The notes beneath the pieces were generated by a model, which saw only the letters and a list, made by a program, of their open reading frames with translations, was not told the origin of the DNA and ran no database searches. A stretch of DNA of 64,000 nt from Enterobacteria phage KhF1: sequence record KT184313.1; one strand, given 5' to 3'. The translations under genes and the position numbers were made by a program. Below, piece after piece: positions 11,127 to 12,756 of the stretch. Within the stretch, counting starts at the first letter, position 1. Each line of letters begins with the position of its first letter.

Positions 11127-11471
11127 GAGCAGCATAAACCAACGGGTACTCACCAGCATCACTTAAGAGTCTTTTAAAAGGGTTTTTAAGTGATGTTTGG
11201 TAAAGTATGGTTCTGTCCGGTAATGCGATGTATGCTATGGTTTGGTGTGGGTAGTTAGTCTCAGCTACATTAAAATGAGACTTACCTTTTTAAAAGGTCT
11301 TTAAACAGGGTCTTTTAATAAGGTCTGGTCGTGTCCGGTTCGGTAGTGTTGGGCTTGGCTTGGTCTGGTCTGGTAAGGGTGGATGGTAGTAGCCACGTTA
11401 AAAATCTACCAAGTTTCTAAAGAGTCTTCTGTTGAGGGTTCTTTACAAACAACTTAACAATCAACTAAAGT

Positions 11472-12074
11472 GTGGAGCTAAATGCTATGAAACTGTTAAA
11501 TATCAAAATCACTGGTACTCGTCCTTTCCTGAGCCACGCTGATACGCTGTCAGACCCATTAAATCCTCTGACAAAATATCACAAGTCTCTGTCCAGTAAA
11601 CGTAAAAAGACTGACGAAGACTATGCGCTCTTAGCAGAAAGTCAACTGGTAACTTCTTGTTACTACGATGAGCAACTAGGTTTTGTTATGAACGGTGAGA
11701 TGATTGAGGCTTGTATCAAGTCTGGTGCAAAACTAAACAAACTTGGTAAGGTAATTGACCGAGCCATTATGCTGACAGATGTAGTCTTCCCAATGACTAT
11801 CAAGAATTGTCCAGCAAACCCACAAGAACTTGCTAAGAATCCAGACTTTATCTATGCTAAGTCTGTTAAGATTGGTACAGCACGAGTTATGAGCTACCGT
11901 CCAATCTTCCGTGATTGGTCTGTAGAGTTTGGTTTGATGTTCGATGAAGAGCAAATCACCAAAGAGGAACTTCTGATGGTTCTTGAAAATGCTGGTAACC
12001 TTTGTGGTGTAGGTGATTGGCGTCCACGCTTTGGTCGTTTTTCTGTAGAAGTTATTTCAGAAGGTAACGTTTAA
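11472..12074 (+). CDS. hypothetical protein
   Basis: ORF track, 200 aa. Confidence 0.5.
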
Positions 12075-12076
12075 TT

Positions 12077-12517
12077 ATGAATACGAAAGCATTAGCAGCA
12101 AAGTTTAGTTACGGTGACACTGTATCACATTCTGAGATGGACACCTTCTTAGGTATTGTGAAACCAACTTATCAAGGTGACATTGTTAAGTACGAAGATG
12201 AAATGAAGGCTTATGCGCTTACACGTCTAAACCGACTTGAGAAGTTTATTGAGAAGCTTCTTAAAGAAGAGAAGATTTATCTGGTTGCTTCAATGGGTGT
12301 TGGTTATCGTGTGGTTGAACCTAAGCATCAAGCAACTATTGCAAAACGTAAAATGTCTGGTAAGATTGGTCGTGCTTTAAAGCAAGCCACTCAAGCAATT
12401 GAGAATGTGAACACTATGGCACTTAGTCATCAAGAACGTTCACGGTTGATTGAACAGCAAAACCATTTAGCTGCTATGAAAGCTAACATTAACAAGCAAC
12501 GCAGAAAACCTTTCTAA
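12077..12517 (+). CDS. hypothetical protein
   Basis: ORF track, 146 aa, basic C-terminus. Confidence 0.5.
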   Translation: MNTKALAAKFSYGDTVSHSEMDTFLGIVKPTYQGDIVKYEDEMKAYALTRLNRLEKFIEKLLKEEKIYLVASMGVGYRVVEPKHQATIAKRKMSGKIGRALKQATQAIENVNTMALSHQERSRLIEQQNHLAAMKANINKQRRKPF

Positions 12518-12528
12518 GTTGACTAGGT

Positions 12529-12551
12529 AGCCTCTTCGGAGGCTCCTTTTT
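12529..12551 (+). terminator. rho-independent terminator
   Basis: AGCCTC-TTCG-GAGGCT hairpin followed by CCTTTTT. Confidence 0.7.
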
Positions 12552-12756
12552 AAAAGGTCTTTAAGAGGGTCTTTTAATGAGGTACGGCGCGGTTAGGTAA
12601 GGTCTGGTAGGGTAGGGTGAGGTTTGGTATGGAAGGATGGCAGTAGCCTTATAAAAAATCTGCCAAATAAGCTATAAAATCTGTTGACAAGTCAGGTGTT
12701 ATAGCTTATTTTTATACTCAATGTAATACAAAATTTAATATAACTTTGAGGTCATT

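Follow-up and report, generated by a model that had tools for sequence, protein, structure and literature searches.

We analysed a stretch of 64,000 nucleotides (nt) from Enterobacteria phage KhF1 (record KT184313.1; hereafter the window) in which a GT-rich element recurs directly 3' of the ATP-dependent DNA ligase gene (9991-11091). The region 11099-12712 is almost certainly a type II VIPR (Viral Interference Programmable Repeat) locus, the GT-rich element being three of its guide RNAs (vrRNAs), here named c0, c1 and c2. The locus runs, in order, from a promoter through units c0 and c1, the genes vipr and vap, and a terminator to unit c2. VIPR is a CRISPR-like system of RNA-guided DNA silencing described in two 2026 preprints (bioRxiv 10.64898/2026.04.26.720920 and 10.64898/2026.04.26.720927), and the element is already known, in that VIPR guides have been described for the near-identical locus of Escherichia phage SUSP1. 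The 5-nt period of the element and its conserved triplet prompted a search of public viral contigs for such arrays, and a subsequent full-text search led us to the VIPR preprint.

According to the first preprint (10.64898/2026.04.26.720920), a VIPR system consists of a small RAMP-type protein, Vipr, the accessory gene vap and vrRNAs of 9-16 YNNGG repeats followed by an invariant tail, which in the SUSP1 clade is a pseudoknot; we took ~40 nt as the expected tail length. Cryo-electron microscopy (cryo-EM) in the second (10.64898/2026.04.26.720927) resolved one Vipr protomer per repeat with the GGY triplet sequestered by named residues, a 3' pseudoknot as cap, and an RNA-DNA hybrid with gaps, in which one target base in three is skipped. 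The SUSP1 vrRNAs are ~100-nt small RNAs that co-purify with Vipr and repress transcription of their targets, based on small-RNA sequencing, pull-down and GFP/phage assays in the VIPR preprints. Real vrRNAs are reported there to be often internally degenerate, codon wobble positions are the ones skipped at the published targets, and VIPR has been proposed as the ancestor of CRISPR RAMP effectors.

Measured against the accessible part of the preprint text, the window and its relatives may add a covarying hairpin 5' of each array, vrRNA units in a phage in which vipr was not found, and a guide, c0, that is degenerate and yet has the best target. The origin of guide 5' ends and the retention of guides in a phage in which vipr was not found are likewise questions that lie outside that part of the text. 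Also new is an unannotated VIPR locus in phage KhF2. VIPR guide RNAs can be recognised from raw sequence alone, and the published rules (guides in GGY/NN register, a tail folded as a pseudoknot, a 1-nt skip that coincides with the codon wobble position) were reproduced independently from public genomes. For KhF1 itself, two unnamed genes and three small RNAs can be annotated and targets in a satellite island predicted.

Proteins encoded beside the element

The protein adjoining the repeats ties the locus to VIPR. The product of vipr is identical at 192 of 195 positions to PDB 36pp chain D, 'SUSP1 Vipr protein' (E = 8.5e-129), and 98% identical to its SUSP2 homologue. By the identity to 36pp, the gene adjacent to the repeats encodes a ~20 kDa RAMP homologue with an RRM core, a G-loop and a thumb. 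Residues H17, E71, M72, R138, C173, D177, W178 and R179 stand at the positions named in the cryo-EM preprint; at position 175, which the preprint text gives as T175, the window and the SUSP1 sequence of 36pp both have V. Neither Vipr nor Vap had a Pfam match, and the only PHROG families to which they belong have no known function. More distant homologues of Vipr, at 23-44% identity, are present in phages or prophages of Gordonia, Pseudomonas, Mycobacterium and Listonella, in keeping with the broad occurrence already reported for VIPR.

Anatomy of the repeat units

The original prediction described the element as two copies, and these are indeed present: in a global alignment of 11283-11418 with 12544-12670, 100 of 138 columns are identical, and both copies have in common a 5' part CCTTTTTAAAAGGTCTTTAA..AGGGTCTTTTAAT.AGGT, a GGT-rich middle and the 3' end. 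A profile of the two copies picked up a third, more diverged copy at 11165-11275 (c0, unit bounds 11156-11282), next to the promoter on its 3' side, which the prediction had missed. The profile gave no further copy in a scan of 9901-13200, and simple motif searches across the 64-kb window returned the element at the vrRNA locus alone.

We fetched the same locus from 14 related phages (Felixounavirus, Suspvirus and Mooglevirus) and extracted 57 units, which hold 49 unique arrays. In all 57, a unit consists of a 5' hairpin, an array of GGYNN pentamers and a 3' tail (Table 1). The GT-rich part keeps a strict 5-nt register in which GGY is conserved and the NN dinucleotide is free: over the 598 pentamers of the 49 unique guides, the composition is G 0.78, G 0.97 and T 0.90 plus C 0.09, followed by two near-random positions, with entropies of 0.99, 0.26, 0.53, 1.91 and 1.91 bits from first to last position. 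Guides have 9-15 repeats and unit lengths differ by multiples of 5 nt; pentamer counts and composition agree with the 9-16 YNNGG of the preprint. The parsing rule also agrees with the structure, since the 12 repeats of the upstream SUSP1 unit correspond to 12 protomers by cryo-EM.

These results sharpen the earlier description. Its GGT-rich repeats (GGTCTGGT) are GT-rich as stated but, by the pentamer entropies, follow the strict GGYNN register instead of being loose. The proposal of a candidate small RNA was right in kind, the units being vrRNAs that, going by SUSP1, would be ~100-nt small RNAs. A protein-binding element was also right in kind, with one GGY per protomer; the AGGTCTTT iterons named as its determinant are instead the two arms of the 5' RNA hairpin. 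A leader structure, the remaining proposal, does not apply, as the element is not a leader or attenuator of a downstream gene. That description did not include the pseudoknot, the register of the pentamers or the connection with the two genes that the units flank.

Triplets conserved 5 nt apart, lying 3' of a promoter and 5' of the terminator-like structure of c0, could also form the cis binding site of a ring-shaped RNA-binding protein that governs the downstream genes by TRAP-like attenuation of transcription or translation. We consider this very improbable: the adjoining protein is Vipr, which makes a helical filament and not a ring, c2 is located after the genes, satellites carry the unit without an adjacent vipr, and the NN spacers hold target information, unlike those of an attenuator. 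The TRAP sites of Bacillus trp leaders ((G/U)AG triplets, 2-3 nt apart) do resemble VIPR in their 5-nt triplet period, free spacers and one subunit per triplet. TRAP, however, is an 11-mer ring that attenuates in cis and whose spacers are uninformative, whereas VIPR is an open helical filament whose spacers guide it in trans on DNA.

A CRISPR-Cas repeat-spacer array is not present at the locus: the units are 120-130 nt long with an internal 5-nt periodicity, and the neighbouring genes have no Cas Pfam match. The likeness of VIPR to CRISPR class 1 lies elsewhere, in a RAMP filament on the guide (the Cas7 backbone on the CRISPR RNA), periodic base flipping, a structured handle as cap, and RNA-guided nucleic acid recognition in the conflict between mobile elements. 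VIPR lacks a repeat-spacer array, the adaptation genes cas1/cas2 and a protospacer-adjacent motif. Of each 5 nt of its guide only 2 are informative, and the target is read with a 1-nt skip; the CRISPR RNA, by contrast, pairs contiguously, every sixth base being flipped. Rfam covariance models gave only tRNAs at gathering score in the 64-kb window, and the genome papers of Felix O1 and UAB_Phi87 list other repeats, the vrRNA element not among them.

Several other readings were dropped once the neighbour was recognised as Vipr and the NN code had targets. They comprise boxA-like antitermination (GGUCUUUAA resembles boxA), a Shine-Dalgarno or CCA-end sponge, and an antisense-strand Rho site or primase sites. 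On the same grounds we set aside the TRAP-like attenuator and, discussed below, a type III toxin-antitoxin RNA and a G-quadruplex or R-loop origin.

Folding of the tails and the 5' hairpins

The tails occur in four flavours that have no stem sequence in common and adopt one fold, an H-type pseudoknot with an A-rich third loop. Stem 1 (4 bp) appears as GTAG/CTAC, GTGG/CCAC or AAGG/CCTT, and stem 2 (6 bp) as AGTCTC/GAGACT, TGGTAG/CTACCA, TGGCAG/CTGCCA or AATCGG/TCGATT. Among 16 distinct tail variants from 15 related phages, 98.8% of cells are paired in the pseudoknot and nine of the ten pairs show changes on both sides, whereas control partners slid by 1-3 columns pair in only 30-42%. The paired substitution GGTAG/CTACC versus GGCAG/CTGCC, which the original prediction had read as covariation in a terminal stem, is real and constitutes one of the nine covarying pairs. 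It belongs to stem 2 and lies within a 6-bp helix, TGGTAG/CTACCA at 11384-11389 and 11406-11411 versus TGGCAG/CTGCCA at 12638-12643 and 12660-12665. The search of related phages suggested along with it recovered the element in the loci of the 14 relatives, and supports the covariation of the pseudoknot.

The 5' hairpin spans 17-19 bp and comes in two flavours, A (consensus GCATCACTTAAGAGTCTTyTAAGAGGGTTTTTAAGTGATGT) and B (consensus ACCTTTTTAAAAGGTCTTTAAGAGGGTCTTTTAATrAGGT). RNAalifold returned a consensus of 16 pairs, five with compensatory double changes and three with an invariant G.U; because these G.U pairs are conserved, the fold works on the + strand alone. Folding of both strands, also suggested earlier, bore fruit in the same sense, with a hairpin on the + strand and a reverse strand of copy 2 that folds no better than shuffles. 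A promoter inside the flavour B hairpin (TTAAAA-17-TTTAAT) was considered and not adopted, being weak and absent from flavour A.

Since the first array repeat overlaps the last two pairs of the hairpin, we infer that the hairpin would mark or create the 5' end of the guide, either defining or processing it. Possible functions are to serve as a site of RNase processing or to halt the Vipr filament as it grows from 3' to 5'. Satellite-borne vrRNAs do not have the 5' hairpin, which argues that it is unnecessary for Vipr loading. The accessible portion of the VIPR preprint text contains no mention of a 5' hairpin, precursor, RNase, maturation or orphan guides. A hairpin-like motif without a following array (11419-11444; Table 1) resembles, as read from the sequence, the apical half of the 5' hairpins and may be a common processing or regulatory site.

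The + strand is G-rich and C-poor and lies behind a strong promoter, properties that would also suit a DNA-level element (an R-loop or a two-tetrad G-quadruplex replication origin) or the RNA repeat of a type III toxin-antitoxin system. ToxIN-type systems have tandem RNA repeats with pseudoknots upstream of genes. We find either scarcely credible here. A G-quadruplex or R-loop needs neither a conserved T at position 3 nor a decodable free NN, and a G.U-dependent 5' hairpin on the + strand alone fits RNA, although single-stranded + DNA could pair G.T. For the toxin-antitoxin alternative, the flanked protein is Vipr and not a ToxN-type nuclease.

Predicted targets in E. coli islands

We reached the satellite indirectly: of 5426 complete E. 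coli genomes, 128 match the vrRNA-like part of the locus, in each case on the chromosome. The match in EC12 lies within a ~12 kb island that is inserted in a DUF72 gene and has serine recombinase, baseplate and tape-measure genes, and relatives of this island occur in 568 of the 5426 genomes. Window positions 25547-26314 encode a protein 75% identical to the island's baseplate protein, and 26899-28566 one 32% identical to its tape measure; vipr and vap were not found in the target island. Because its baseplate and tape measure are related to window genes and vipr and vap were not found in it, the island fits a satellite dependent on Felix-like helpers, and it is probably a satellite.

For the target scan we compared the NN dinucleotides of each guide, using our own script, with seven islands (EC12 and six further variants). 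With a 1-nt skip between dinucleotides, 33 of the 49 guides reached an NN match of at least 0.80 and 13 reached at least 90%; skips of 0, 2 and 3 nt brought 0, 0 and 1 guides to 0.80 or above. Guide c0 matches at 22/22 NN positions (24/24 with the preceding dinucleotide) on the sense strand of a 235-aa gene in strain ECONIH2 (island L139, 6985-7016). For c1 the best match (19/22 NN) is antisense to the serine-recombinase gene of the satellite in strain MS 57-2 (L138, 2402-2433); for c2 (18/20 NN) it is intergenic in strain MRE162, upstream of the gene homologous to the c0 target (L140, 7149-7177). The scores of c0, c1 and c2 were not attained in any of 1000 order shuffles, whose maxima were 19, 18 and 17. 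With the frame taken from gene coordinates, the skipped base is codon position 3 at both the c0 and the c1 site. No self-target was found in the window at up to 3 mismatches, and the exact NNx patterns of c1 and c2 had no match in IMG/VR; natural targets are imperfect and lie in bacterial chromosomes.

Satellite-like islands of this kind (L135-L141, e.g. NZ_CP070229.1 116739-128739) measure ~11-12 kb and are inserted in the DUF72 gene by yecD/yecN or between tonB and yciI. Two of them, L135 and L138, encode their own vrRNA with the T2 tail of the phages and without 5' hairpin or vipr.

Despite its degenerate GGY, c0 has the best target among the three window guides. Taken alone, c0 might be a decayed pseudo-guide that no longer functions, given that the first G or the third position is degenerate in 5 of its 11 repeats and that its array is identical in the window, EF202P1 and UAB_Phi87, a phage in which vipr was not found, and so is not hypervariable. 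We think decay unlikely in view of the perfect codon-phase match to a satellite gene and of the frequent internal degeneracy that the preprint reports for real vrRNAs.

Some points weigh against the identification of a working VIPR locus in the window. Both key papers are preprints, and expression, Vipr loading and function of c0-c2 are carried over from SUSP1 by analogy. The degenerate repeats of c0 and its conservation among several phages count here as well, and c0 might bind Vipr poorly owing to those repeats. Unit c2 lies beyond a good terminator and would need read-through or a promoter of its own. The c1 and c2 targets are imperfect in the seven satellites, which were sampled from 568 carrier genomes. 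The tail alignment was fitted to the pseudoknot by hand, using N-padding, and is thereby biased towards that structure; the poor pairing of the slid controls argues against an alignment artefact.

Predicted mode of action and comparison with SUSP1

By analogy with SUSP1, each unit would yield a guide RNA whose mature form comprises array and tail, 85-90 nt. The window's Vipr is 98.5% identical to that of SUSP1, for which the following steps were shown, and one protomer would accordingly be expected per GGYNN repeat, flipping out and sequestering GGY and presenting the NN dinucleotides, with the 3' pseudoknot as filament cap. The NN would pair with double-stranded DNA, skipping every third base, and the resulting gapped R-loop or triplex would block transcription. 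During infection the locus likely silences the parasitic satellite.

The type II VIPR of SUSP1 (vrRNA1-4, Vipr, Vap1; PDB 36pp) is like that of the window in its position 3' of the DNA ligase gene, in having related vrRNA units on both sides of vipr-vap, and in its GGY/NN code, tail flavours and kind of target (an E. coli satellite of Felix-like phages). The accessory gene of the window was compared with that of SUSP2 only (99% identical). The sequence context of the promoter upstream of c0 is that found ahead of SUSP1 vrRNA1, and the first 36 nt from the start of the c1 tail are identical to SUSP1 vrRNA1, the whole 35-nt tail included. The two loci differ in layout: in SUSP1, vipr-vap is preceded by a single unit (hairpin A, T2 tail, 12 repeats) and followed by three, versus two and one in the window. 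They also differ in the NN sequences of their guides and in host phage, SUSP1 being a Suspvirus and the window phage a Felixounavirus. A 5' hairpin stands ahead of every array in the window and does not figure in the accessible SUSP1 preprint text.

Orphan units and arrays in other genomes

The Felix O1-like phage UAB_Phi87 (NC_027360.1; loci L012, L142 and L143) has its ligase gene separated from the following gene by two intact vrRNA units, and no vipr or vap was found in the 81.7 of its 87.6 kb that were checked (all outside 50001-55937). One of these orphan units, with an array identical to that of c0, has a perfect satellite target. The orphan units could use Vipr in trans or act as decoys. 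Coupled with the proposal that the 5' hairpin is a module devoted to making type II VIPR guides or setting their boundary, this makes up a tentative reading that we hold to be possible, with the odds somewhat against it.

UAB_Phi87, with just two units and no vipr-vap found versus three units around the cassette in the window, could also indicate that the repeats are mainly recombination modules, similar to promoter-early stem-loop (PeSL) cassettes, for gain and loss of vipr-vap. The copy number of the units and the combination of hairpin and tail flavours vary between phages, and Vipr is present in only 131 phage records versus 258 with the same neighbourhood. That the modules do recombine is judged from SUSP1 and the window, which join hairpin and tail flavours differently. 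As the main role of the repeats, however, recombination is improbable: it explains the polymorphism, but not the GGY/NN register, the covarying pseudoknot or the highly significant NN matches to satellites. The PeSL cassettes of T4-type phages resemble VIPR units as stem-loop repeats that flank variably present cassettes of small genes. They are promoter/terminator modules without guide function, whereas VIPR repeats function as RNAs themselves, loss of the cassette being a side effect.

A search of public viral contigs (IMG/VR) for (GGTNN)6GGT returned more than 120 stretches, and 35 of the loci L015-L134 also encode a Vipr homologue (tblastn). These loci include many unrelated viral contigs with hypervariable GGTNN arrays in varied layouts. 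Contig L017 has six tandem arrays separated by AAGGCTAATGG; L021-L024 represent one 189-kb contig with at least 10 arrays, many of which end in a hairpin and T-tract; in L027 the arrays lead directly into a T-tract and ribosome-binding site; and in L121 they alternate with a conserved hairpin.

Coordinates and surroundings of the locus

The scan-derived features in Table 1 include the promoter upstream of copy 1 and, on either side of copy 2, the terminator and next promoter, all of which the original prediction had placed correctly. The T1 tail together with TACCTTTTT may terminate transcription.

Table 1. Features of the predicted VIPR locus in the window.
Feature	Position	Strand	Basis or remark
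Sigma-70-type promoter, TTGACA-16-TATACT	11099..11126	+	11/12 consensus matches; predicted to drive upstream vrRNA units and vipr-vap
c0 5' hairpin, flavour A (GCATCAC...GTGATGT)	11156..11196	+	Predicted 19-bp hairpin
c0 guide array, 11 pentamers, GGY partly degenerate (TGT, AGT, TGC, GCT)	11194..11248	+	Register with tail
c0 3' tail, flavour T1, pseudoknot stems GTAG/CTAC and AGTCTC/GAGACT	11249..11282	+	Followed by TACCTTTTT, terminator-like
c1 5' hairpin, flavour B (ACCTTTTTAAAAGGTCTT...AGGGTCTTTTAATAAGGT)	11284..11324	+	Predicted fold
c1 guide array, 11 GGYNN pentamers	11322..11376	+	Register with tail
c1 3' tail, flavour T2, pseudoknot stems GTGG/CCAC and TGGTAG/CTACCA	11377..11411	+	
Hairpin-like motif AAAGAGTCTTC-TGTT-GAGGGTTCTTT, no array after it	11419..11444	+	vipr 5' untranslated region, between c1 tail and vipr start
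vipr, 195-aa RAMP-type protein	11487..12074	+	Protein-coding 11487-12071
vap (vipr accessory protein), 146 aa	12077..12517	+	145/146 identical to the gene after vipr in SUSP2
Intrinsic terminator hairpin AGCCTCTTCGGAGGCT	12529..12544	+	Terminator scan; T-tract overlaps start of c2 5' hairpin
c2 5' hairpin, flavour B	12545..12582	+	Predicted fold
c2 guide array, 10 GGYNN pentamers	12581..12630	+	Register with tail
c2 3' tail, flavour T3, pseudoknot stems AAGG/CCTT and TGGCAG/CTGCCA	12631..12665	+	
Promoter-like site of next gene (12757-13140)	12684..12712	+	Promoter scan; downstream locus boundary

A 19-nt inverted repeat, AAATAAGCTATAAAATCTG / CAGGTGTTATAGCTTATTT (12665-12711, 89% complementary), begins at the final base of the c2 tail and extends over the first hexamer of the promoter that follows. 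The repeat may terminate c2 or serve as an operator.

Judged by sequence, the window phage is Felix O1-like, a KhF2-like Felixounavirus: KhF2 is 99.1% identical to the window region and many Felixounavirus genomes are 93-95% identical. In the KhF2 GenBank record (KT184314.1 58560-60224), vipr and vap are unannotated and no feature is given between the ligase gene and the gene beyond the locus. The record GU169904.1 (147 kb), named Staphylococcus phage SA1, carries the E. coli-phage locus at 94% identity, which suggests a chimeric or contaminated assembly.

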